Below, piece after piece: positions 20,180-32,757 of a stretch of DNA of 51,508 bases. The notes under the pieces are model-generated. The model was not told the DNA's origin, searched no databases, and worked only from the letters and a program-made list of their open reading frames with translations. The DNA is taken from contig JBCCQQ010000046.1 in assembly GCA_039024555.1 (NCBI GenBank), positions 1-51,508 of the forward strand, given 5' to 3'. Source of the DNA: Cyanobacteria bacterium P01_D01_bin.156 (GTDB taxonomy: Bacteria > Cyanobacteriota > Cyanobacteriia > Phormidesmidales > Phormidesmidaceae). The position numbers were made by a program, and so were the translations under genes. How positions within the stretch are numbered: position 1 is the stretch's first letter; each line of letters starts with the position of its first letter.

Positions 20180-20304
20180 CCCTGTTAACGTACTGTCGCG
20201 AGAGTTAGAGACATTACATAGAATTGCTTAGATAATCCGGTAAAATTCCCAATTGCGCTGAAGATAGTTCCATGTGTGGATACCTATCTGTTGGAGGCGC
20301 TCTA

Positions 20305-23300
20305 ATGGTACCAATTAAAAGCTTTGCAGTTATCACCCTGGGAAGTTTGTTCGTCAGTGGAGGTACTGCTTGGGCGCAATCCGTTGTTGGGAATGGGGCC
20401 AATACATCCGTTATCAATGACGGTGGCGACTACCAAATTACTGGGGGAGCGCTTTCCAGCGACAATAATAATCTTTTCCACAGTTTTGAACAGTTTGGGT
20501 TAACCGCCACAGAATCGGCCACATTTATTACCCAGCCTAATGTTGTGAATGTGGTAGGGCGGATCAACGGCGGAGATCCGTCCATTATTGATGGGCAGTT
20601 GGGGTTAACGGGCAGCACAGCCAATCTCTTTTTACTAAACCCGGTGGGGGTGATTTTTGGGGCAGATGCCACATTAGCGCTACCGGGGGATTTACATGTT
20701 TCTACAGCAGATGGGTTAGCTTTTGCCGACAACACTTTTGATGTGGTCGGTACTCCTGACTATGCCAGCTTAGTGGGTAATCCTACGGGAATATTATTCC
20801 GTTTTAGCAACCCTGGCTCGATTATTAACGAGGCCGATCTGTCTCTGGAAGAAGACAGTGCTTTACGATTAACCGGGGGCAATGTGGTGTCCACAGGGAC
20901 GGTAACCGCCGAAGAAATTGCGATCGCAGCGGTACCCCAAGAACAACTGATTCGTCTAAGTCCGAATGGATCTCTTCTCAGCTATGACATCGCTGTTGCT
21001 GATGGCAGTAGCCTATCTCCCTTAACCTTGCCAGAGTTGTTAACCGGTGCTGGAGATAGGGTCAACAGTTTACAGCTTGAAAATGACGGTACCCTGCGTC
21101 TGGTCAGTACTGATCTGGCCTTGCCCGCCACCCCAGGCACCACCTTGGTAAATGGCATTTTTACGGCCTCAGATATTACTCTGCTGGGGAATACGGTGGG
21201 TGTGGTTGAAAGTGTCCTAGACGCCAGTGGCCCTGACGGTGGTGGCACCATCCGCATCGGCGGTAGCTATCAGGGGCAAGGGCCATTGCCCAACGCCCAA
21301 ATCACCTACGTCGATGCTAATTCGGTGATAAATGCTAGCGCCACGGACAATGGCAACGGGGGAGAGATTATTGTCTGGGGAGATCAAACCACCCACGCAT
21401 TGGGACAGTTTTTAGTGCGGGGAGGAGACAGCGGTGGCAACGGTGGCCTGGTGGAAACCAGTGGTTTACAAGGGCTTACCCTAGGCAGCAACAGCCCAGA
21501 TATTACAGCTCCTTCGGGGGTGGCAGGCCAATGGCTAATCGATCCCTTTGATGTTGTTATTGATGATGACTTTGAGGATCAGGGGTTTGACCCAGCCAAT
21601 CCGTTTGTTGCCATTTCTTCCCCGGCTCAGCTGACTACATCCTCTTTAGCCACTGCCCTAGGCGGCGGCGGTACGGTCAGGGTAACGACCGGTAATGCAG
21701 GATCTGAAACCGGTGACATTACGCTGAACAGCGATTTGGGCTTTTTTAACACCGGGGAGGCGACCTTATCCCTGGAAGCTGCAGGCAGCATTCTTCTTAA
21801 TGGGGCTATATTTCCCAGTACTGAAACGGGCTCATTAAATATTAATTTGGAGGCGGATACTGACAATACGGGCAATGGCCAAGTGGTTTTGGGTAACCCA
21901 GACTCTGGGGAAACGCCCGGTGAAATTATCAATACCGCTGGGGGCAATCTGACCGTCACTGCCAACAGTACAGCCCTGGGTACGCCAGCGATTCTTCTGG
22001 TTGAAGACTATCAAATCAACATCGGAGATGGACTGTTAACGTTAACTGGGACGACCAACAGCGAAAATGTTGGCATTCGCCTAACCGAAGATATTTTTGG
22101 CAGTGGGGGTATTAGCTTATCCAGTAATCGTGATATTGAGGTGAATACCCTGGTCTCCGATGGCGATATCACGGTCAATACTCCCCAATTTTTTAGAGCA
22201 TCTGGGATTACGGTGTTGAGTGAGATTGGTCCGGCAGCTAGTGTGGTTAGCCGTGGTGGCCAGGTTACCATTACCCATGGAGGTAACGGCGAGACTCCGT
22301 TTACGGTGGGAGAAGCTGAGGTCAATGGGACCGCTGGTTCGATTATTGCCACAGAGAATCAGCTTGACCCCCCTCAAGAACTTTTTGAGGATTTTGTACA
22401 AGGGGATATTGCAATTTTGACAGGCAGCTCTGAGGAGCCCGATCCTGTAGAGCCCGATCCCATCGAGGACGACCCGGTTGATGCAGATGACTGTACCGCG
22501 GACTGCACCACGAACCGCTCACGTCCTGAGATCACTAAAGAAGATCCAGAGACATTACTCACCGTTGATCCTGATCTTGTTCCCAGTTCTAGCCTTGATG
22601 TAGAAGCGGCGATTCTCCGCAATGAGCGTGACTATACCGAGGAATATCGTCAGTACCTGACCCTAGGCATGGCAGAGCCCGCTAAACCCACATTGCCTCA
22701 GCTGCAGTTTGAGCTATCCCTAGTCGCAGAAGAAACCGGTGCCCCCCCAGCAATTGTCTATGTGTCCTTTGTTCCAGAAGGCACTGCGTCAGGAGAGATG
22801 GCTGCTGCCAAAGAGGAAAACCGCTCTATTCAACCTACGGATGTGTTGGAATTAGTAGTGGTGACTCCAGAAGGGTTGCCAATTCTCAAAACCTTACCGA
22901 TCCAAAATGAGCAGGTACTAAAAACAGCGGATCGCTTTCGTAACAATGTGACTAATCGGGGACGAGTGCGCACGCGCACCTATATCAGTGCAGCCCAGGA
23001 TCTGCATACCTGGCTAATTGAGCCCATTGAAGCAGAGCTTAGGTCGCGAGGTATTACCAATTTGGCCTTTGTGATGCCACCGGGGTTGCGATCGCTACCC
23101 GTTGCCGCCCTCCACGATGGAGAATCTTTTTTAGTAGAACGTTACAGTGTGGGGCTTATGCCCAGCGTGAGTCTGACGGATATGCGCTATGTGGACGTTC
23201 GAGAAACAGAAGTATTGGCCATGGGAGCCTCTAACTTTGAGGACCAGCCGGAACTACCTGCAGTGCCCATTGAGCTGAGAACCATTGCCGAAAATCTCTG

Positions 23301-23871
23301 GGCCGGAGACTTTGTTCTCAACGAAACATTTACGCCAGATGCTCTGGTGGCGAGCCGGGCTCGCAAACCCTACGGCATTGTTCACCTGGCAACCCACGGT
23401 GAATTTAAGTCAGGCAACATAGACAACTCCTATATTCAGTTTTGGGACCGCAAGCTGAGTTTAGACCAGGTACGTCAGCTGGGGTTAAACGACCCTCCGG
23501 TGCAGCTCATGGTGCTCAGTGCCTGCCGTACCGCGTTGGGTAGTGAAGAAGCTGAACTAGGGTTTGCTGGCTTTGCGGTGCAGGCCGGTGTGAAAACCGC
23601 CATGGCCAGCCTATGGAAGGTGGATGATGTGGGAACAGCCGGGCTGATGACCCAGTTTTATACCAGTTTGCAAACCGAACCCGTTAAGGCAGAAGCCCTA
23701 CGCCAGGCGCAGTTGGCCATGATCAATGGCGATATTCGAGTAGACAATGGTCAGCTGGTGTGGTCTGGGGGCACCCTACCCCTGCCGCAGGATCTAGCCC
23801 AGGTAGATAGTAGTTTGTTTGCCCACCCTTATTTTTGGGCGTCGTTTACCACCATTGGTAGCCCTTGGTGA
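20305..23871 (+). CDS. Filamentous haemagglutinin N-terminal (TPS) domain + CHAT domain protein
   Basis: Signal peptide (AWA-Q), NLFHSFEQF, ANLFLLNPVG. CHAT motifs VHLATHGEF, VLSACRTA, ASLWKVDD, HPYFWASF, with the His/Cys dyad intact. Confidence 0.92.
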   Translation: MVPIKSFAVITLGSLFVSGGTAWAQSVVGNGANTSVINDGGDYQITGGALSSDNNNLFHSFEQFGLTATESATFITQPNVVNVVGRINGGDPSIIDGQLGLTGSTANLFLLNPVGVIFGADATLALPGDLHVSTADGLAFADNTFDVVGTPDYASLVGNPTGILFRFSNPGSIINEADLSLEEDSALRLTGGNVVSTGTVTAEEIAIAAVPQEQLIRLSPNGSLLSYDIAVADGSSLSPLTLPELLTGAGDRVNSLQLENDGTLRLVSTDLALPATPGTTLVNGIFTASDITLLGNTVGVVESVLDASGPDGGGTIRIGGSYQGQGPLPNAQITYVDANSVINASATDNGNGGEIIVWGDQTTHALGQFLVRGGDSGGNGGLVETSGLQGLTLGSNSPDITAPSGVAGQWLIDPFDVVIDDDFEDQGFDPANPFVAISSPAQLTTSSLATALGGGGTVRVTTGNAGSETGDITLNSDLGFFNTGEATLSLEAAGSILLNGAIFPSTETGSLNINLEADTDNTGNGQVVLGNPDSGETPGEIINTAGGNLTVTANSTALGTPAILLVEDYQINIGDGLLTLTGTTNSENVGIRLTEDIFGSGGISLSSNRDIEVNTLVSDGDITVNTPQFFRASGITVLSEIGPAASVVSRGGQVTITHGGNGETPFTVGEAEVNGTAGSIIATENQLDPPQELFEDFVQGDIAILTGSSEEPDPVEPDPIEDDPVDADDCTADCTTNRSRPEITKEDPETLLTVDPDLVPSSSLDVEAAILRNERDYTEEYRQYLTLGMAEPAKPTLPQLQFELSLVAEETGAPPAIVYVSFVPEGTASGEMAAAKEENRSIQPTDVLELVVVTPEGLPILKTLPIQNEQVLKTADRFRNNVTNRGRVRTRTYISAAQDLHTWLIEPIEAELRSRGITNLAFVMPPGLRSLPVAALHDGESFLVERYSVGLMPSVSLTDMRYVDVRETEVLAMGASNFEDQPELPAVPIELRTIAENLWAGDFVLNETFTPDALVASRARKPYGIVHLATHGEFKSGNIDNSYIQFWDRKLSLDQVRQLGLNDPPVQLMVLSACRTALGSEEAELGFAGFAVQAGVKTAMASLWKVDDVGTAGLMTQFYTSLQTEPVKAEALRQAQLAMINGDIRVDNGQLVWSGGTLPLPQDLAQVDSSLFAHPYFWASFTTIGSPW

Positions 23872-24090
23872 TGAAATTCTCACAGGCCAGTAGGGTCAGA
23901 GTTGTTGAAAGTGGGTCATGGTAAAAATGCAACTCTTTACACCGCAACAACTGCCTTTACCTTAAACTCACAAACAAGATCAGCATTCACAGCATTATCG
24001 AATGGCTGCATCAGTGCCAGCATAGTGAGCACGGGGGACACAAATACCTTTATCCCGTAAACTGTTCTTCCTGAGAATAAAGTGGCATCT

Positions 24091-24225
24091 ATGGCTAAGC
24101 AGACTAAAACAGAACTCTGGCAACCTCTTTCTGAGAAGCAAACGGCGCTCGTGAAAGGTGGTATGGCGCACAAAAATTACTACAAGGGGCCAATCCCCAA
24201 GCATCCAGGGCATTATCGCGGTTGA
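24091..24225 (+). CDS. Double-glycine-leader peptide precursor (44 aa): MAKQTKTELWQPLSEKQTALVKGG|MAHKNYYKGPIPKHPGHYRG
   Basis: Manual translation. Leader LWxxLSxKQxAxVxGG is shared with the 24439..24630 ORF, and a terminator follows. Confidence 0.78.
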   Translation: MAKQTKTELWQPLSEKQTALVKGGMAHKNYYKGPIPKHPGHYRG

Positions 24226-24438: not shown

Positions 24439-24630
24439 TTAGCACAGGTCAGAATAGTTGTTTATAGCATTGGGTACGGGGCTCTCTCCGCGACCGGCTC
24501 CCGGTCTCCACCAGCCGCCGCCGTTGCCGCCGCCGTTACCAACTGGAAAGAGTTGACCGCCCTGGACGGTTGCTTGCTGCTTTTTACTGAGCTTAGTCCA
24601 AAGTCTTTTGGGGTTATTTTGAAATCGCAT
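24439..24630 (-). CDS. Double-glycine-leader peptide precursor (63 aa): MRFQNNPKRLWTKLSKKQQATVQGG|QLFPVGNGGGNGGGWWRPGAGRGESPVPNAINNYSDLC
   Basis: Leader matches the GG consensus (V at -4, S at -11, L at -12, W at -15). ATG at 24630, own terminator. Confidence 0.78.
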   Translation of the reverse strand: MRFQNNPKRLWTKLSKKQQATVQGGQLFPVGNGGGNGGGWWRPGAGRGESPVPNAINNYSDLC

Positions 24631-25531: not shown

Positions 25532-26641
25532 ATGACCCGAATTGCAATTGTTGGTTGTGGCATTGTTGGCGCTACCATCGCCTACGAGCTGAGTCGCCAT
25601 AGCCAGTTAGACATTCACCTCATCGAGCAGCAAAATCCTGCCCAAGGCTCTACCCAAGCAGCCTTGGGCGTTTTAATGGGCATCATTAGCCACAAGGTTA
25701 AGGGCCGAAACTGGCGACTACGCCGGGATAGCATTGAGCGCTACAAAACCTTACTGCCTGAACTAGAAGCAGCTTTGGGGCGACAGATTCCCCATGTGCA
25801 AGGTCTTCTCAGTCTGTGTTTTGATTCAGACCAATTGCCCCGCTGGCAGTCTTTGCAAGCAAAGCGAGCGGACCAGGGATATGCGCTAGAAATTTGGTCT
25901 CCCGAGCAGTTACGACAGCAGTGTCCCCAAATTAATGCCCATACCGTTACAGCAGCTATTTTCTCTCCTGAGGACGGTCAGGTGCATCCCCACCAGCTTA
26001 CCCTGGCATTGGTGGAAGCGGCTAAACAGCGAGGGGTAACAACCCACTGGCAAAGTCCTGTCCTGGGACTAAAAACCCAGCCCTGCACCCAGCTACAGCT
26101 GCCAGAAACTACCCTTGATGCAGATTTTGTCGTGATATCGGCGGGACTGGACTCCGCTGATCTAAGCCAAATTGGAACAGAACCCCTACCCATGATTCCA
26201 GTTTTGGGTCAGGCCCTTGAACTAGAGCTAGACCAGCCTCTGGGACATGACAACTTTCAACCGGTGATTAATGGCCATGATGTGCATATTGTACCATTGG
26301 GAGAGAATCGCTACTGGCTAGGGGCAACGGTGGAATTTCCGCCAGGGGGAGAAGCCGTTGAATTACCCTTAGCAGAAGATCTTGAGCTAGCACCAGAAGC
26401 AGAACGGCTAGAGCACATGCGACAGATTGCCACGGATTATTGTCCGGCCCTGATTAAAGCGCGAATTGTGCGTCACTGGAGTGGGTTACGACCGCGCCCC
26501 CAGGGGCAAGGTGCGCCCGTGATTAAGCCCCTAGCTGGCTTGGAAAACGTGATTTTAGCCACAGGGCATTATCGCAATGGTGTATTGTTGGCTCCGGCTA
26601 CCGCAATGACGGTAGAGGCGCTGTTGGGGCTTTTAGATTAG
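25532..26641 (+). CDS. FAD-dependent oxidoreductase (DAO/glycine oxidase-like)
   Basis: IVGCGIVG, ST.AALGVL, WSGLRPRP, ATGHYRNGVLLAP. Confidence 0.9.
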   Translation: MTRIAIVGCGIVGATIAYELSRHSQLDIHLIEQQNPAQGSTQAALGVLMGIISHKVKGRNWRLRRDSIERYKTLLPELEAALGRQIPHVQGLLSLCFDSDQLPRWQSLQAKRADQGYALEIWSPEQLRQQCPQINAHTVTAAIFSPEDGQVHPHQLTLALVEAAKQRGVTTHWQSPVLGLKTQPCTQLQLPETTLDADFVVISAGLDSADLSQIGTEPLPMIPVLGQALELELDQPLGHDNFQPVINGHDVHIVPLGENRYWLGATVEFPPGGEAVELPLAEDLELAPEAERLEHMRQIATDYCPALIKARIVRHWSGLRPRPQGQGAPVIKPLAGLENVILATGHYRNGVLLAPATAMTVEALLGLLD

Positions 26642-27987
26642 CTCCCTAAACTGGCGATGCTTAAACGAGCTTTGCGCAGGAGAAACTGTAAAACAGTCTC
26701 CTGACCCACCTGAATATCTGCTCGTCCTTGCATACCCACACGAACATTACAGCGTTGGCTATGGTTCTCTAAATATAGTCTTTGGGGTTTTATGGTGACC
26801 TCATAGCTACCAGCCACAGAGCTTTCTGGCCCCACTCCTACCAAGGGCAGGTTCGTTGTCGCTGCAGACAAGGTGGCATCGGATAAGATATCTGTTACCG
26901 TCCCCTTAAGGACACCATAGTCTGGGTGGGGACAGCTCTCTAGACGCAGATTCACCAACTGACCAACTTCCACCTGGCTAATATTGGAGTTGGGCACCCA
27001 GGCCTTAATGACAAGAGATTCATCGACAGGGGCAATTTGCAACAACAGCTCACCTGGTTGAACAACTTGATTGAGGTTGCGCAAATTAGTGGTTTGTATT
27101 TGACCAGAGACAGGAGCTTTTAATTCCAGTTGCGATCGCTCCAGGGTCAGCCGCTCCAACAATGCCTGTTGTTGAGAAATTTTACCTTCCAGTACGGTAC
27201 GCTGTTGCCCCAGATGAGTTTGTTCCTGACTCATTTGATCAAGGGTTGCCTGGCGCTCTAATTTTGCCTGGGCAATTTTCTCCACAGCCTGGTCTACCAT
27301 GGCTCGATCCACTTGGTTGGCTGTTTGAGCCTGCAGTAATTGAGCATGGGCCGACTCTAACTGGGCCTCTCTTTCCAACACCGATAGTTGAGATACAGCT
27401 CCTTGGTCCGCAATCTGCCGATACCGATTTAAAGATTGTTCAGCTAGCTGAAACTGAGATGCAGCCACTTGCAGATCGCTATCAGCATCAGCCCGCCGCT
27501 GCTGGAACTGATGTTCCGTAAACTGCAGTTCTGTCTCTGCGATCCGAATCTCACGGTTCCAGCTTTGGGCGTTCGCCTGCCATTGGGATTGCATTAACTG
27601 TTGTTGTTGCTCCAAGCTTTCCCACTGTCGGCGCAGGGCCGTTAGCTCTTGCTGCGCTTGAGCAATGTGGGACTGCAGCTGGATATCGTGTAAAACAGCC
27701 ACCGTATCTCCAGCCTGCACCACATCACCCGATGTAACGACAATGGTTTTAACCAATCCTGTCTGAGGCGCTTGTACATGGCGCAATTCCCCTTGGGCAC
27801 GCACAATAGCCGCCGCTTTAACCTTGACACTGTAGGGGATAAACCAGCATCCGCCAATTGTCGCAACCAGGGTAAACAGGGCCGCTATGCCTCCCCCCCA
27901 TACTAAAGGATGGGGAGACTGTAAAAATTCTTCTTGGGCATTAATCTGAATCGTTTGAGAAACTAACTTTTCCATATTGGATGACAT
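26638..27987 (-). CDS. HlyD-family membrane fusion protein (type I secretion adaptor)
   Basis: N-terminal TM, GELRHVQAP..G.V..I.V..GD.V..GD, long coiled coil, APVSG, L..CP.PDYG.L.G.V, VGMQGRADI. Confidence 0.92.
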   Translation of the reverse strand: MSSNMEKLVSQTIQINAQEEFLQSPHPLVWGGGIAALFTLVATIGGCWFIPYSVKVKAAAIVRAQGELRHVQAPQTGLVKTIVVTSGDVVQAGDTVAVLHDIQLQSHIAQAQQELTALRRQWESLEQQQQLMQSQWQANAQSWNREIRIAETELQFTEHQFQQRRADADSDLQVAASQFQLAEQSLNRYRQIADQGAVSQLSVLEREAQLESAHAQLLQAQTANQVDRAMVDQAVEKIAQAKLERQATLDQMSQEQTHLGQQRTVLEGKISQQQALLERLTLERSQLELKAPVSGQIQTTNLRNLNQVVQPGELLLQIAPVDESLVIKAWVPNSNISQVEVGQLVNLRLESCPHPDYGVLKGTVTDILSDATLSAATTNLPLVGVGPESSVAGSYEVTIKPQRLYLENHSQRCNVRVGMQGRADIQVGQETVLQFLLRKARLSIASLGS

Positions 27988-28262
27988 ATATCACACATAA
28001 AAATACTTCTAAAAATAGATAACATCGAATCAACTATGCTTTAGTCGTAGTGACTTTATTAAAGCTATTAATAAGTTAGTAAGATAATTTTTCATCAACT
28101 CTAAAAATAGCCTTTTAGTATAACAAAAACTCTCCAATGATCTGATTTTAGCCATTAAAAATAATGGGAATATATTCTGAAAAATAACGTAAACCACTGT
28201 TCCTATGAGTCTGAAATGCCATTTACAAAGGGGATCTTTGATTTTATAGGTAAAAATACTCC

Positions 28263-28315
28263 CTAGTAATTAATACTAGATGGCTCTTGACGCACTGGTT
28301 TTGAATCAGTATATT
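28263..28315 (+). promoter_or_regulatory. Sigma70-like promoter with upstream palindrome for the peptide gene 28457..28603
   Basis: TTGACG (28287-92), 17-nt spacer, TATATT (28310-15). Palindrome CTAGTA-ATTAA-TACTAG at 28263-28279. Confidence 0.6.
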
Positions 28316-28456
28316 CCCTAATAGAGTCTTTTAGTGCTCGGTGAATATACGGTTTCAAAAATGTTAGATTCAACGATTTTTATTTGTTTGAGTATTCATT
28401 TTCCGTATATTCACTGAGCTGCTATGTTTATTTTGAGTTTAGGAGATTTTTGAGTT

Positions 28457-28603
28457 ATGTCTAAGTTCTTTTCAAAGCTATTGGGCCGCAAGCAAAACGA
28501 AAACACGACTGTTAAGGACTCCACGCCAGCCGTAACCAAAGATATTCAAGATTCTGAGGCTGATAAAGTCTCCGGTGGTCTTGGCTATGCTTCCTGGTGG
28601 TAA
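28457..28603 (+). CDS. Double-glycine-leader peptide precursor (48 aa): MSKFFSKLLGRKQNENTTVKDSTPAVTKDIQDSEADKVSGG|LGYASWW
   Basis: Manual translation. AGGAG RBS at 28441, IxxxExxxVSGG leader. Lies between HlyD and the C39 ABC transporter. Confidence 0.82.
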   Translation: MSKFFSKLLGRKQNENTTVKDSTPAVTKDIQDSEADKVSGGLGYASWW

Positions 28604-28944
28604 ACAAAACTGGTTCTTGAGGTTTGTTGAATTAGCCAATTCTCGGAGTTGGAGAGCACGAAGCGTCTAAATCTCCTTGTTTGAAGAGGCTGATTTTATC
28701 AACGATATTGGGGCTGCCTTTGTAGCAAATTGCTTACAAAGGTGGCCCTTTTACTATGTCGGCCTATGACATTAGATTTTTGATCCTGTATTTTGGAAAG
28801 TTTTTCGGAGCATTGCGTCCTCTGAATCAGCAGCGGCGCTATCTTTTTAACTATTTTTTTAGAGAGATAATTCACTGAATCGAAAACAAGTTGGCACAAT
28901 AAAAGGGCTCCTCTGGGGGTGATCCCGTTGTTTTCATCGATTAG

Positions 28945-31158
28945 ATGCGGCGAAAAAAATATGAATGCGTCCGGCAGCATGGGTATGAGGATTGTGGCGC
29001 TGCCTGTATGGCCACTGTCGCCAAAAGCTATGGACGTGCCTTAGCCCTATCGGAGGCCAGGGAAGCGGTCGGTGTAGGAGCTTTGGGCACTACCTTACTA
29101 GGACTGCGGCGGGGGGGAGAAGCCCTTGGGTTTAAGGCTCGACAGGTGCGGGCATCTAAGGAACTATTGTCCCAGCTATCAACGGTTCCCCTACCTGCGA
29201 TTATCCATTGGAAAGGGTGCCACTGGGTAGTACTCCACGGTCAGCGGCGGGCTAAATACATTATTGCTGATCCCGCCGTGGGGTTGCGATGGCTCAACCA
29301 ACAGGAGCTTATGGCAGCCTGGGATGGGATCATGTTGTTGCTAGAGCCCGATGAAATTCGGTTCTACAGTCAGGCTAAACAACAAAAAGTAACAGGCGTG
29401 CCATCCCCATTACGTCGGCTGTGGCCCTATCGAAAACTGTTGCTTGAAAGTTTAGGGCTGAATGTGGCAATTGGCCTGATCGCCTTAGTGATCCCGTTTT
29501 TAATCCAGATTCTAACGGACGACATTTTGATCGATGGCGATCGTCGAATGTTAACAATCTTTGCTTTGGGGGCAGGGGTATTGACCCTGTTTAGCACCCT
29601 ACTGGAATGGATTCAGCGCTCCTTAGTTGTTTATGTTGCTCAGCGGTTTGAACTGTCGTTTACCCTAGACTTTGGTCGACAGTTACTGCAGCTGCCCCTA
29701 ACCTATTTTGAGACCCGTAACAGTGGGGAGGTGTCTGCTCGACTTCAGGATATTCAAATTTTTAATCGGCTGTTGCTAAAAACTCTGGTTCTCCTACCTA
29801 GTGAAGGGTTTACGGCTATTGTGGCCTTGATTTTAATGGGGGTGTACAGCCCCATCTTGACCCTGTGGGCCTTAGGGTTAGCCGCTGCTATTTTGGCTCC
29901 GATTGTGATTGCCTGGCCCACCTACCAACAGCGGGCCAGAACCCAATTAGTCATGGCGGGGGAAAATTTGGGACTGTTGGTGGAAACCTTTAAAGGGGCC
30001 ATGACCCTCAAATCGATTAATGCTTACCCCCAGCTTTTGGATGAACTGCAGCGACGGTTAGGACGTTTGGCAAAATATAACTTTGAGACATTGGGGTTTA
30101 ATATGACCCTAAGCCTGATTGCCAAGCTGATGATCGGGTTAGACACCATTGTTATGCTGTGGTTGGGGGGGACTCTCGTTAACAGCCAGCAGATTAGTGT
30201 GGGACAACTGCTAGCGGTTTACAGTCTCAATCGTACACTCACCCTATTTCTTCTTCGCTTGGTAGAGTGGGGGGATGAATTTGCCCAGGTGAGAGCGGTT
30301 ACGGCCCGTATTCTCGACATTATTGAAACTAAACCTGAACAGAGACAGTTTGCGGCTTCTGTGGAACTGTCGGAAGCGACCGATGGGGTCTCTAGAAAGC
30401 AGGGAACGGCATCTCTTCCCTTTGTGGAGTTTCCCATGGATGTGGCAATCACCTGCACAGATGTTTCATTTTGCTATGGGGGGCGCATGGATTTACTCCA
30501 GGACTTTTCTGTGGCAATTCCGGGGGGTAAAACAACGGCGTTAATCGGCGAGTCGGGCTGTGGGAAAAGCACCTTAGTCAAGCTGATTTCCGGCTTATAT
30601 TCTCCTAAAAGTGGCAATATTGCATTTGGCCCTTACAGCTGCGACGATGTAGCTCTGGATTGTTTGCGGCAGCAGGTGCGTTTAGTGCCCCAGGATGCCC
30701 ACTTTTGGCAGCGTTCTATTTTAGAGAATTTTCAGTTGACTAATCCCCATCTCTCATTTGAGGAGATTGTTGATGCCTGTCAGCGAGTCCAGGCCCACGG
30801 GTTTATTTCCCAGTTACCCAACAAATATCAGACGGTGTTGGGTGAATATGGTTCGAACCTGTCAGGGGGACAAAAACAGCGGTTAGCGATCGCACGGGCG
30901 TTAATCAATCAGCCAGCGGTGCTAATTCTAGATGAATCCACCAGTGCATTGGACCCCATTGCTGAAACCAATCTGCTCAATACCCTAGCGGACTATCGCC
31001 AGGGTAAAACCACCCTAATGATTAGCCATCGGCCCCAGGTAATTAGTCGAGCCGACTGGATTATTTTTCTAGAACAGGGCAAAGTTAAGCGGGTGGGACC
31101 ACCCCAGGAGCTATTGAAAACCCCTGGCAGCCATCGCTATTTTCTAGAACATTGTTGA
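28945..31158 (+). CDS. Peptidase-containing ABC transporter (C39 peptidase + TMD + NBD; PCAT)
   Basis: QHGYEDCGAAC, HWVV, IADPA (Cys/His/Asp intact). GESGCGKST, LSGGQKQ, LILDE, ISHR. Confidence 0.95.
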   Translation: MRRKKYECVRQHGYEDCGAACMATVAKSYGRALALSEAREAVGVGALGTTLLGLRRGGEALGFKARQVRASKELLSQLSTVPLPAIIHWKGCHWVVLHGQRRAKYIIADPAVGLRWLNQQELMAAWDGIMLLLEPDEIRFYSQAKQQKVTGVPSPLRRLWPYRKLLLESLGLNVAIGLIALVIPFLIQILTDDILIDGDRRMLTIFALGAGVLTLFSTLLEWIQRSLVVYVAQRFELSFTLDFGRQLLQLPLTYFETRNSGEVSARLQDIQIFNRLLLKTLVLLPSEGFTAIVALILMGVYSPILTLWALGLAAAILAPIVIAWPTYQQRARTQLVMAGENLGLLVETFKGAMTLKSINAYPQLLDELQRRLGRLAKYNFETLGFNMTLSLIAKLMIGLDTIVMLWLGGTLVNSQQISVGQLLAVYSLNRTLTLFLLRLVEWGDEFAQVRAVTARILDIIETKPEQRQFAASVELSEATDGVSRKQGTASLPFVEFPMDVAITCTDVSFCYGGRMDLLQDFSVAIPGGKTTALIGESGCGKSTLVKLISGLYSPKSGNIAFGPYSCDDVALDCLRQQVRLVPQDAHFWQRSILENFQLTNPHLSFEEIVDACQRVQAHGFISQLPNKYQTVLGEYGSNLSGGQKQRLAIARALINQPAVLILDESTSALDPIAETNLLNTLADYRQGKTTLMISHRPQVISRADWIIFLEQGKVKRVGPPQELLKTPGSHRYFLEHC

Positions 31159-31181
31159 TTCAATCTTTACTTAAAAAGTCT

Positions 31182-32060
31182 ATGGGGCGATATGACACTG
31201 CTGAAAAAATTAAAACACTAGATCCGCAACAGGATGCGATCTCAATTTGTCATCTATTGGTGGGTTATGAGTTTCCATGGGATATCACCCGAGCCTTAGA
31301 AATTGCCCTGTTGCGAACATTTTGTGTTCCCACCATTGCCACCTTGCTAGACAATACAGGAGAGTTTCAGCACCATACCCAAAAACGCTACGACGATACC
31401 GGCATTATCGTGTCGGAACTCTTTAAGTGGGGCTATCGCCATCCCCGGGGACAGCAGTTTTTACAGCGGATGAATGCCATTCACAGCCGGTTTCCCATCG
31501 CTAATTCAGACTACCTGTATGTGCTGTCCACATTTATCTATGAGCCCGTGCGCTGGTGCGATCGCTTTGGTTGGCGTTCCCTTAGTCCGCTGGAGCAACA
31601 GGCCATGTACCACTTTTGGGTGGCCGTGGGTGAGCGCATGGGTATCACTGATATTCCCGACACCTATGGGGCCTTTGAAGCATATAACCAAGCTTACGAA
31701 CAGCAACACTTTACCTATGCCGCTGCTAACCAGCGAGTGGCGGATGCCACCCGCGCCATGCTGTTGAGTTGGTTTCCCATGGGGGTGCGATCGTTGGCAA
31801 ATCCTGCCATTCCAGCCCTATTAGACAGACCGTTACTCAATGCCCTGGGCTGGCAGCCTGCCCCAAGCTATCTAACCCAGCTGTTAGAAACCACTCTCAA
31901 AGTCCGTAGTCGTTTGCTTTGTAAACTTCCTCCCCGTACGTTACCAGATTTTTTTGCCGATCAGACCATTCGCAGCTATCCCCAGGGCTACGATGTCAGC
32001 AATATTGGTCCCCCATCTCTTTTAGAGCAGCTTAACGCGCCTCCAGAAACACGCCCCTAA
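31182..32060 (+). CDS. Oxygenase MpaB family / DUF2236 protein
   Basis: ALLRTF.VP.I..LL..TGEF, KRYDDT, MN.IH, DYLYVLSTF, VGERMGI.DIP. Confidence 0.85.
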   Translation: MGRYDTAEKIKTLDPQQDAISICHLLVGYEFPWDITRALEIALLRTFCVPTIATLLDNTGEFQHHTQKRYDDTGIIVSELFKWGYRHPRGQQFLQRMNAIHSRFPIANSDYLYVLSTFIYEPVRWCDRFGWRSLSPLEQQAMYHFWVAVGERMGITDIPDTYGAFEAYNQAYEQQHFTYAAANQRVADATRAMLLSWFPMGVRSLANPAIPALLDRPLLNALGWQPAPSYLTQLLETTLKVRSRLLCKLPPRTLPDFFADQTIRSYPQGYDVSNIGPPSLLEQLNAPPETRP

Positions 32061-32073
32061 AAGGAGAATCTCC

Positions 32074-32757
32074 ATGGCCGTACAGTTAGACAAGGTGGTG
32101 CCCTTTGGGCGATTGTTAGATGAATATGTGCAGATGTTTTCCCTCACCCCGGAAGACCTGGAAAAGTCCATCCTCAGCGTGGCTGACGGACCAGCGGGCT
32201 TTAACGCCCAGGGAACCCGATTAGGGTACCAAATTAAGTCCGTCGATCCGCTGTATTGTTTTAATTCCAGTGAAATTAAACAACAGTTTTACCTAGTGGT
32301 AGACAACATTATTTCCCAGGTGGAAAACTCCATGGAGGACTGGGTGTGGATCTTTCATAAATCCCCCAGCGATCTGCGCAAAAATCGTGAAACCGCCCTC
32401 CAGTATTTTTGTGAAGACTTTGACCAGGGTAAACTCGAAGGCCGTTATGAAATTGGTGAGCTACCTAAACTTAACTATCCAGACGCTAGCTACGATCTGG
32501 GACTGTGTTCTCACTTTTTGTTTTTATATTCAGAACAGTGCGATCGCACCTTTCACCTAGCCTCAATTCGTGAGATGTTGCGGGTGTGTCGAGAAGTTCG
32601 CATTTTTCCATTGCTTAGCCTTAACCTGCAAACATCTCCCCATTTAGGGTTTGTGATGAAAAATCTAACTGCCTTGGGTTACCGTTGTGAAATTGAGTCC
32701 GTTGCCTATGCGTTTCAGCGCAATGGCAACAAGATGCTGAGAATTACCCCTCAATAG
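32074..32757 (+). CDS. Putative SAM-dependent methyltransferase
   Basis: VVPFGR..DEY..MF.L, ILSVADGPAGF, DLGLCSHFLFLYS, EMLRV.REVRIFPL. Confidence 0.8.
   Translation: MAVQLDKVVPFGRLLDEYVQMFSLTPEDLEKSILSVADGPAGFNAQGTRLGYQIKSVDPLYCFNSSEIKQQFYLVVDNIISQVENSMEDWVWIFHKSPSDLRKNRETALQYFCEDFDQGKLEGRYEIGELPKLNYPDASYDLGLCSHFLFLYSEQCDRTFHLASIREMLRVCREVRIFPLLSLNLQTSPHLGFVMKNLTALGYRCEIESVAYAFQRNGNKMLRITPQ

Follow-up and report, generated by a model that had tools for sequence, protein, structure and literature searches.

What a cyanobacterium might gain from exporting a peptide of only seven residues is the question raised by a small gene in the window analysed here, which is the whole 51,508-nucleotide stretch of contig JBCCQQ010000046.1 from a 99% complete cyanobacterial assembly of marine metagenomic origin. 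The gene (P0001; 28457..28603, +) has no Pfam or NCBIfam match and encodes a 48-residue precursor whose translation ends KDIQDSEADKVSGG-LGYASWW, followed by the stop codon TAA. The 41-residue double-glycine leader (28457..28579, +) carries Ile at -12, Glu at -8, Ala at -7 and Val at -4 ahead of Gly-Gly, and the core heptapeptide LGYASWW occupies 28580..28600 (+). The ribosome-binding site AGGAGA (28441..28446, +) lies 10 nt 5' of the ATG, and the identical hexamer precedes the orthologue in genome G068. A promoter proposed at 28287 by the first-pass annotation is the best of eight promoter-like sites in the region (TTGACG-17-TATATT, 28287..28315, +, 10/12 matches), but eight sites against a shuffle mean of 7.8 place the class no higher than shuffle expectation, and the site is not independently significant. 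The position of an intrinsic-terminator-like hairpin between the peptide gene and the transporter gene (28710..28749, +; z -5.2, 0/200 shuffles) suggests a short abundant transcript with partial read-through into the latter. Positions 26400-31400 are identical in a second assembly, a Logan contig from the probable source run and hence not an independent sample; the stop codon is therefore no assembly error and is real in the sample. The exact precursor protein is present in both NCBI and Logan.

The leader belongs to the double-glycine type. The consensus for such leaders places Gly-Gly or Gly-Ala at -2/-1 and hydrophobic residues at -4, -7 and -12; the precursor has Val-4, Ala-7 (weaker than the usual Leu), Glu-8, Ile-12 and Gly-Gly, all kept in the orthologue. 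The named leader families (NHLP, N11P, ComC and bacteriocin signal) gave no Pfam or NCBIfam match, and the Atlas scores for ComC (0.82) and lantibiotic (0.84) both fall under the 0.9 mark and serve as leads. An amphipathic N-terminal helix, also proposed earlier, fares less well: the hydrophobic moment of 0.59 is reached by 9.5% of 10,000 shuffles, while the N-terminal KLLxRxK is kept in the single orthologue.

The peptide gene is flanked by export genes. A gene for a HlyD-family periplasmic adaptor (26638..27987, -; Pfam/NCBIfam) is divergent from it, an orientation absent from the first-pass description, and a peptidase-containing ABC transporter (PCAT), recognised by its C39, membrane and ATPase domains, follows at 28945..31158 (+) with its catalytic Cys17, His93 region, Walker A and B motifs and signature intact. 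Judging from what is known of these families, the neighbouring PCAT would cut the precursor after Gly-Gly, and export would proceed with HlyD and a TolC-type channel. Directly 3' of the PCAT gene is a gene for an MpaB'/Lcp-like (PF09995, Pfam) putative haem oxygenase (31182..32060, +). An open reading frame at 32074-32757, on the same strand as both, has no Pfam match and is presumably methyltransferase-like, by resemblance. The flanks of the locus hold an FAD oxidase, PsbQ, the PF09995 protein and one open reading frame of no assigned family. Translation and domain matches thus bear out the first-pass description of the leader, core, stop, ribosome-binding site and placement between HlyD and PCAT, and the interpretation then attached to them is partly supported.

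Cyanobacterial peptides exported by such systems have precedents. EbfG1-4 are GG-peptides exported by a PCAT that serve biofilm formation, according to the accessible part of PMC4997328, and precursors of 28-164 residues near cyanobacterial PCAT-HlyD clusters are described in the accessible part of PMC3140520. Like EbfG1-4 and PteB, the present system combines a double-glycine leader, a C39-ABC transporter with a catalytic Cys and a HlyD adaptor; unlike the known cyanobacterial GG systems, it has a seven-residue core, a divergent hlyD, no NHLP or N11P match and a core that equals the repeat of a separate secreted enzyme. Class II bacteriocins have cores of about 25-60 residues, which span the membrane. 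With cores of 7 residues here and 13 in the orthologue, the earlier exclusion of that class holds. A pheromone of the XIP type had been proposed instead. The peptide is like ComS/XIP in being a C-terminal peptide of ∼7 residues with a double Trp. CSP is exported via a GG leader, a feature that the precursor has in common with ComC/CSP. In contrast to both systems, no Rgg/ComR was found, there is no adjacent ComD/E and no sequence homology; XIP, for its part, is not tied to a repeat array. The Rgg/ComR model (TIGR01716) has no match in the 99% complete genome, while the control matched in Lactococcus lactis, and no histidine kinase with response regulator adjoins the peptide gene in the flanks of the locus, though a receptor may be encoded elsewhere. 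The likeness to XIP amounts to an analogy, confined to size and WW.

The main finding, one that the first-pass annotation could not reach, comes from the genome itself. LGYASWW is found 12 more times in it, all on contig C78 and mostly at 48-nt spacing, equal to 16-residue units. These copies lie in P0002, a 1313-residue NF038122 RTX protease (locus L051, G000:C78 9632-13573, -). The strain thus has the motif of the free peptide in tethered form as well: 12 identical copies follow immediately on the catalytic domain of a type-I-secreted metzincin. The array spans residues 349-546 and consists of 13 units, 12 of them LGYASWW and one VSYGSWW, with an acidic spacer, for instance QAFEGQVLE, after each. 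The order along the protein is NF038122 domain (residues 15-302), array, RTX calcium repeats, three repeated beta-domains and a C-terminal RTX part. The NF038122 HMM scores 247 bits against a cut-off of 80, with HEIGHSLGF at residue 179, and the HEIGH motif, the third His and the Met-turn are conserved. A model of the first 310 residues resembles MMP-2 (Z 10.7, rmsd 3.2, 124 aligned), leishmanolysin (Z 9.5) and serralysin (Z 8.3), consistent with a predicted metzincin fold. The protein is therefore a member of NF038122 (metallo_LGF) with an MMP/leishmanolysin/serralysin-like predicted fold, and differs from the described family in the array and the matching free peptide; no Pfam or NCBIfam model and no Atlas match represents an array with a matching free peptide. 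Foldseek returned no match at E<=0.001, the fold search barely covering the array. The peptide gene (C46) and the protease gene (C78) lie on different MAG contigs, and the compositions of both contigs are ordinary within the bin (ranks 84 and 69 of 99).

The reading that we favour, tentatively and at somewhat less than an even chance, is that the peptide acts, as a free and unmodified counterpart of the motif tethered in the protease, on the protease's own putative motif-binding site. Peptide and array would be kept identical because one binding site reads both, and the most economical reader would be the protease domain itself, with the array as tethered substrate or bait. On this view the free peptide, matched to its strain, would compete as a decoy or serve as a switch, setting the time and place at which the protease self-processes or acts. 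A predicted complex of the protease domain with precursor residues 19-48 scored 0.02 and weighs neither way; the single-sequence fold of protease plus five repeats had a pLDDT of 36.

The array is one member of a widespread and variable family. Array-type proteases occur in 24/151 genomes of the family (two weak, with stops) and in 10/401 genomes of the class, and 41 database proteins carry an array, the query included. By their names the homologous proteins suggest Leptolyngbya-like forms, and P0022 and P0024 are listed under [Leptolyngbya] sp. PCC 7376, a cultured strain. Homogenisation has given each protein a unit of its own, such as LGYGSWW, MGYGQWW, LGYGELW, QGWGTWF or MGFSEWW, and 63 distinct arrays display 33 dominant heptamers in 4-17 copies. 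Across 401 units, Glu precedes 253, Leu, Met or Ile starts 381 and Gln follows 378, and position 3 varies between Y, W, P, H and F. All NF038122 proteins inspected have a short variable motif behind the catalytic domain and a linker hairpin, followed by Gln or Glu; its kinds are LGY..WW arrays, tandem WGYSGYW-type units and Arg/Ser-rich runs. This post-catalytic stretch has the appearance of a variable, tethered module. PEP-CTERM members with WGYSGYW-type or Arg/Ser-rich tethered motifs were seen at L087, L350 and L352 (G430, G424) and at L334-L338 and L341. In the own genome, two tandem PEP-CTERM paralogues (L052; G000:C72 1-906 and 993-2537, +; the first truncated by the contig start) each have two degenerate units, among them LGYAGWW, which also has Ala at position 4. 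At L279 (G000:C53 39200-43831), two FecR genes and one for a CHASE2-adenylate/guanylate cyclase, a candidate sensor, precede a fourth NF038122 gene, of which only the start lies on the contig before its end.

Cleavage ahead of a hydrophobic residue is common among metzincins (P1' preference). Units that start with Leu, Met or Ile after Glu fit this preference, and such a cut would give the same N-terminus as PCAT cleavage. The same property would suit a diffusible signal supplied by two routes, in which the protease, as a self-processing polyprotein, releases peptides that start with LGYASWW, the PCAT-linked gene supplies the other source, a receptor reads both and the array variants are pherotypes. 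This version retains the pheromone proposed at first pass, in a form like that of PatS/HetN. The homogenised unit of each protease, as in pherotypes, and the 4-17 copies, as in a multi-copy precursor, favour this arrangement, and in the portion of PMC7761841 at hand PatS, HetN and PatX provide a cyanobacterial precedent for a short motif that a single organism encodes both in a small peptide and within a larger protein. These established regulators also add a qualifier to the earlier remark that peptide signalling in cyanobacteria is not well established. The present pair is unlike PatS/HetN in its motif, in its 12 copies in a secreted protease against the single copy in HetN, and in that HetR is an intracellular target; PatS is described without a GG leader in the part of PMC4997328 consulted. 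Both WW and, in Streptococcus suis, W-G-T-W are XIP motifs in the accessible text of PMC4072589, which speaks for a signal as well. Against a two-route signal stand the absence of Rgg from the genome and of a sensor gene beside the cassette, the Gln that follows 378/401 units and would call for a second, different cut to end at WW, and the fact that no upstream element common to the peptide gene and its orthologue is evident. We regard it as possible but unlikely. Units of the QGWGTWF type (L059, L060, L063, L247, L248) contain the same four residues, W-G-T-W, as S. suis XIP (PMC4072589, accessible part), a likeness that is probably coincidence.

The array may, less plausibly still, be structural or adhesive, its aromatic motif serving helix-turn packing, membrane or surface binding or matrix self-assembly, with the free peptide seeding, capping or dispersing the assembly through its matching sequence. 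In the model, whose confidence is low here, the repeats form short helices that meet at the LGY turn; the protein has RTX repeats and three repeated beta-domains, and its paralogues are PEP-CTERM surface proteins. TPS-domain genes occur near 11/30 repeat-protease loci compared with 21/440 16-kb tiles of the own genome, an enrichment that places these proteases in secreted-protein islands and agrees with a structural role, as does the part of EbfG1-4 in biofilms (PMC4997328, accessible part). Such a role has no need for a separate gene that matches at a single Gly/Ala position, and in some paralogues Arg/Ser-rich motifs take the place of the aromatic one, so that together with the low confidence of the array model it appears rather unlikely.

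The favoured reading of a matched decoy or switch depends on whether the identity between core and array could be accidental. LGYASWW has an expected count of 4.4e-4 in the 1.57 million residues of long open reading frames, and among 2520 permutations of the heptamer only the exact one occurs there. One of nine other GG-peptide cores also shares a 7-mer with a long open reading frame, but as a single copy and with a shuffle P of 0.34 over 190 windows, compared with one Trp-rich window, the entire core and a 12-fold repeat for LGYASWW. The heptamer is present in 1/63 distinct arrays, that of its own genome only, and Ala at position 4 is found in 1/588 units of the other 62; this set holds arrays of at least four units, among which related arrays are not independent, and the two-unit C72 paralogues fall below the threshold. 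The closest protease relatives carry Gly at position 4 (35 catalytic domains, truncated proteins left out). At the DNA level, Ser is encoded by TCC in the peptide gene and by AGC (11) or AGT (1) in the 12 array units, and the codon aligned to the peptide Ser is CCC (Pro) in the orthologous gene. The differing codon families and the CCC of the orthologue indicate a match at the protein level, by convergence rather than recent copying, and the peptide apparently arrived at the array's residue independently.

Relatives of the free peptide are few. The sole orthologous locus found (L023) is in G068, a genome of another family, with a homologous leader, ribosome-binding site and divergent hlyD, and its contig ends just behind. 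The leader is 39% identical with the same ending, and the core, WGCWILPWWACRP, has 13 residues (WGCWI...), continuing four residues past WW; the earlier annotation had looked to orthologous cores for a sign of strain-specific truncation if much longer, and this one is longer, but not much longer. The G068 hlyD is the closest to that of the window (64% and 52% over two pieces, the middle missing); its reading frame (L276 12618-13268, 216 aa) lacks the whole middle in frame, either through decay or as an assembly artefact. The array unit of G068 is QGWGTWF, so that W-G-x-W is common to core and unit, a loose parallel only.

A second group of relatives belongs to another phylum. A Saprospiraceae MAG (G512) has four tandem GG-leader reading frames with the cores LAYGQWW, LGYGQWW, EEFDPLYTGYSQWW and LGYGEWW, the second copy being without the usual ATG and called from an upstream ATG. 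Three further database members have the cores LGYGEWW, LGYGQLW and EEFDILYIDYSQWW. The core boundaries, a Leu start and a stop after WW, are the same as here; the short cores, six-plus in number, all keep Y-x-x-W-W as their invariant part, and LGYGQWW, LGYGEWW and LGYGQLW occur verbatim in cyanobacterial arrays. The GTDB search pattern was derived from the motif, and the Saprospiraceae match was selected in that respect; chance matches would not bring with them GG leaders, four copies in an array or a stop placed just behind WW. Neither an NF038122 protein nor an array was found in the MAG (completeness not given), while PCATs are present elsewhere in it. The Saprospiraceae peptide array (L169 3721-4425, G512:C241) lies behind a RecQ/UvrD-like helicase gene, and no transporter or maturase is nearby.

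These relatives bear on the possibility that the match is historical, a GG-peptide gene having been captured or having drifted to repeat-like sequence, with truncation by a nonsense codon and no present coupling. TAA is one change from CAA, the Gln codon behind WW in the array, the orthologue runs four residues past WW next to a possibly decayed hlyD, and few genomes have the cassette, HlyD identity in 390 other class genomes reaching no more than 41%. The DNA behind the peptide stop, however, is no more array-like than shuffles, the Ser codon families differ, and the ribosome-binding site, terminator, PCAT and HlyD are intact here. The L...WW-stop heptamer recurs independently as a precursor core in another phylum, which makes a chance truncation unlikely on comparison of the cores; we consider a historical accident improbable.

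A further alternative, to which we give an equally low probability, is that an enzyme with its gene elsewhere takes the heptamer as its substrate, recognises peptide and array alike and introduces a Tyr/Trp cross-link, oxidation or prenylation. The invariant Y-x-x-W-W of the short cores, the putative haem oxygenase behind PCAT and four P450s on other contigs of the genome, none of them in the locus, are in its favour. Aromatic cross-linking, as suggested at first pass, loses ground with the lack of a SPASM radical SAM match (TIGR04085) in the 99% complete genome, where the control matched in 9/14; the suggested prenylation finds no LynF/TruF/PatF match in the own genome either, with a control that matched nowhere. 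No PF09995 homologue lies beside the other PCAT, HlyD or protease loci fetched, inspection of the reading frames around the Saprospiraceae array revealed no candidate enzyme, and position 3 of the array, Tyr here, varies. The released product would accordingly be linear, unmodified LGYASWW, as the missing SPASM and LynF/TruF matches (the latter with a silent control), the unlinked P450s and the unconserved PF09995 gene lead us to infer. Enzyme-fused or multi-core RiPP precursors are known, among them multi-core microviridin, burpitides, borosins and WprA/WprP (accessible parts of PMC5934393, PMC10107690, PMC12957482 and 10.1101/2021.12.24.474128). In tandem short cores, acidic spacers, an enzyme fused to cores and 'split' forms, the present system is like those that these partial sources describe, and by its sequence the array architecture fits an enzyme-fused multi-core precursor. 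Unlike in the precursors described there, the fused enzyme is a metzincin protease followed by RTX export repeats, a carrier that appears in none of these sources, and no modifying enzyme was identified.

Searches for additional cassettes underline that the peptide is an accessory, rarely present, and the repeat protease the widespread part. The precursor retrieved only itself from 5.8 billion clusters, and peptide-alignment searches retrieved only the Saprospiraceae set (7 and 3 proteins). P0001 matched 30 of 401 class genomes at E<=1; inspection of 6/29 foreign loci gave the one true orthologue, the uninspected matches being mostly inside long reading frames or with stops. The leader profile matched in 5/173 genomes of the family and 1/8 in that of G068, with 0 orthologues among three new loci inspected. 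With HlyD as the marker, the best foreign full-length identity was 41% in 390 class genomes and 37% in 26 repeat-bearing genomes, and no matching peptide lay beside the loci inspected. A Saprospiraceae family profile matched in 8/251 genomes, with YxxWW cores only in G512 among those inspected. GG-x7-stop patterns, run on two overlapping sets of 23 and 20 repeat-bearing genomes, turned up no free peptide, and none was found outside the protease of the near-complete G455. Pattern-scan matches were rejected as chance in 64/65 GTDB, 48/48 metagenome and 5/5 viral cases, and plasmids gave only noise.

Taken as an action of the free copy on the protease, the data weigh on both sides. The exact 7/7 match of the whole core, the rarity of Ala-4 and the restriction of this heptamer to the array of the own genome count for it, together with the Saprospiraceae core boundaries and three verbatim cores, W-G-x-W in the G068 core and unit, the variable motif at the same post-catalytic place in NF038122 proteins, and the conserved catalytic residues in a predicted metzincin fold. 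On the other side, the exact coupling is found in one genome only and the G068 core matches its array only loosely; in most repeat-bearing genomes no free peptide was found, and the Saprospiraceae peptides without their own protease. The repeats, if helical as modelled, would need unwinding by the protease, the genes are on different contigs, and 7-mer matches can arise by chance, as in one of nine control cores. Saprospiraceae can prey on cyanobacteria. In a broader and clearly less probable version, tandem motifs particular to each strain (x-G-aromatic-x-x-W/L-W/F) would serve secreted metzincins as an 'address' that these read or release; some strains would add a matched switch exported by PCAT, and co-occurring, protease-less Saprospiraceae would encode arrays of the same heptamers as mimics that jam the cyanobacterial enzyme or signal or eavesdrop on it.

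The evidence hints at a peptide-protease pairing without earlier description, rather than an ordinary pheromone or bacteriocin. Literature searches for NF038122, metallo_LGF, LGYASWW or four variant heptamers returned nothing (subscription journals and supplements outside scope), and papers on PEP-CTERM or RTX metalloproteases in cyanobacteria show no such arrays in their titles or abstract openings. The pairing joins two orphans, namely the role of very short cyanobacterial GG-peptides and that of NF038122 proteases with their repeat arrays. Should the peptide prove to regulate the protease, or to be released by it, a PCAT peptide would be coupled to a secreted enzyme in a new way and with variants particular to each strain, and marine biofilms might harbour mimicry between phyla. 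A rule for mining is suggested too: short cores can be searched for as repeats within the large secreted proteins that the same genome encodes.

The genome contains other GG-peptides. Two further small reading frames with GG leaders of the LW..LS.KQ...V.GG type (24082-24225, +, and 24439-24630, -) lie beside a TPS-CHAT gene (20272-23871) in the window, and at least seven more of this type occur elsewhere in the genome, several with Y/W-C-x-R/T-T-K-K-like cores. A second conserved cassette, consisting of two convergent PCAT-HlyD pairs beside TPS genes, is present in this genome (L053, G000:C49) and in G021 (L084, G021:C32), where a repeat protease lies ∼7 kb away and the cassette includes two GG-peptides whose cores are unrelated. 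Another GG-peptide of the genome (L274, G000:C51, about 21990-22210, -) has a core that starts WGYAWC, with G-Y-A in common with LGYASWW and W-G-x-x-W in common with the G068 core.
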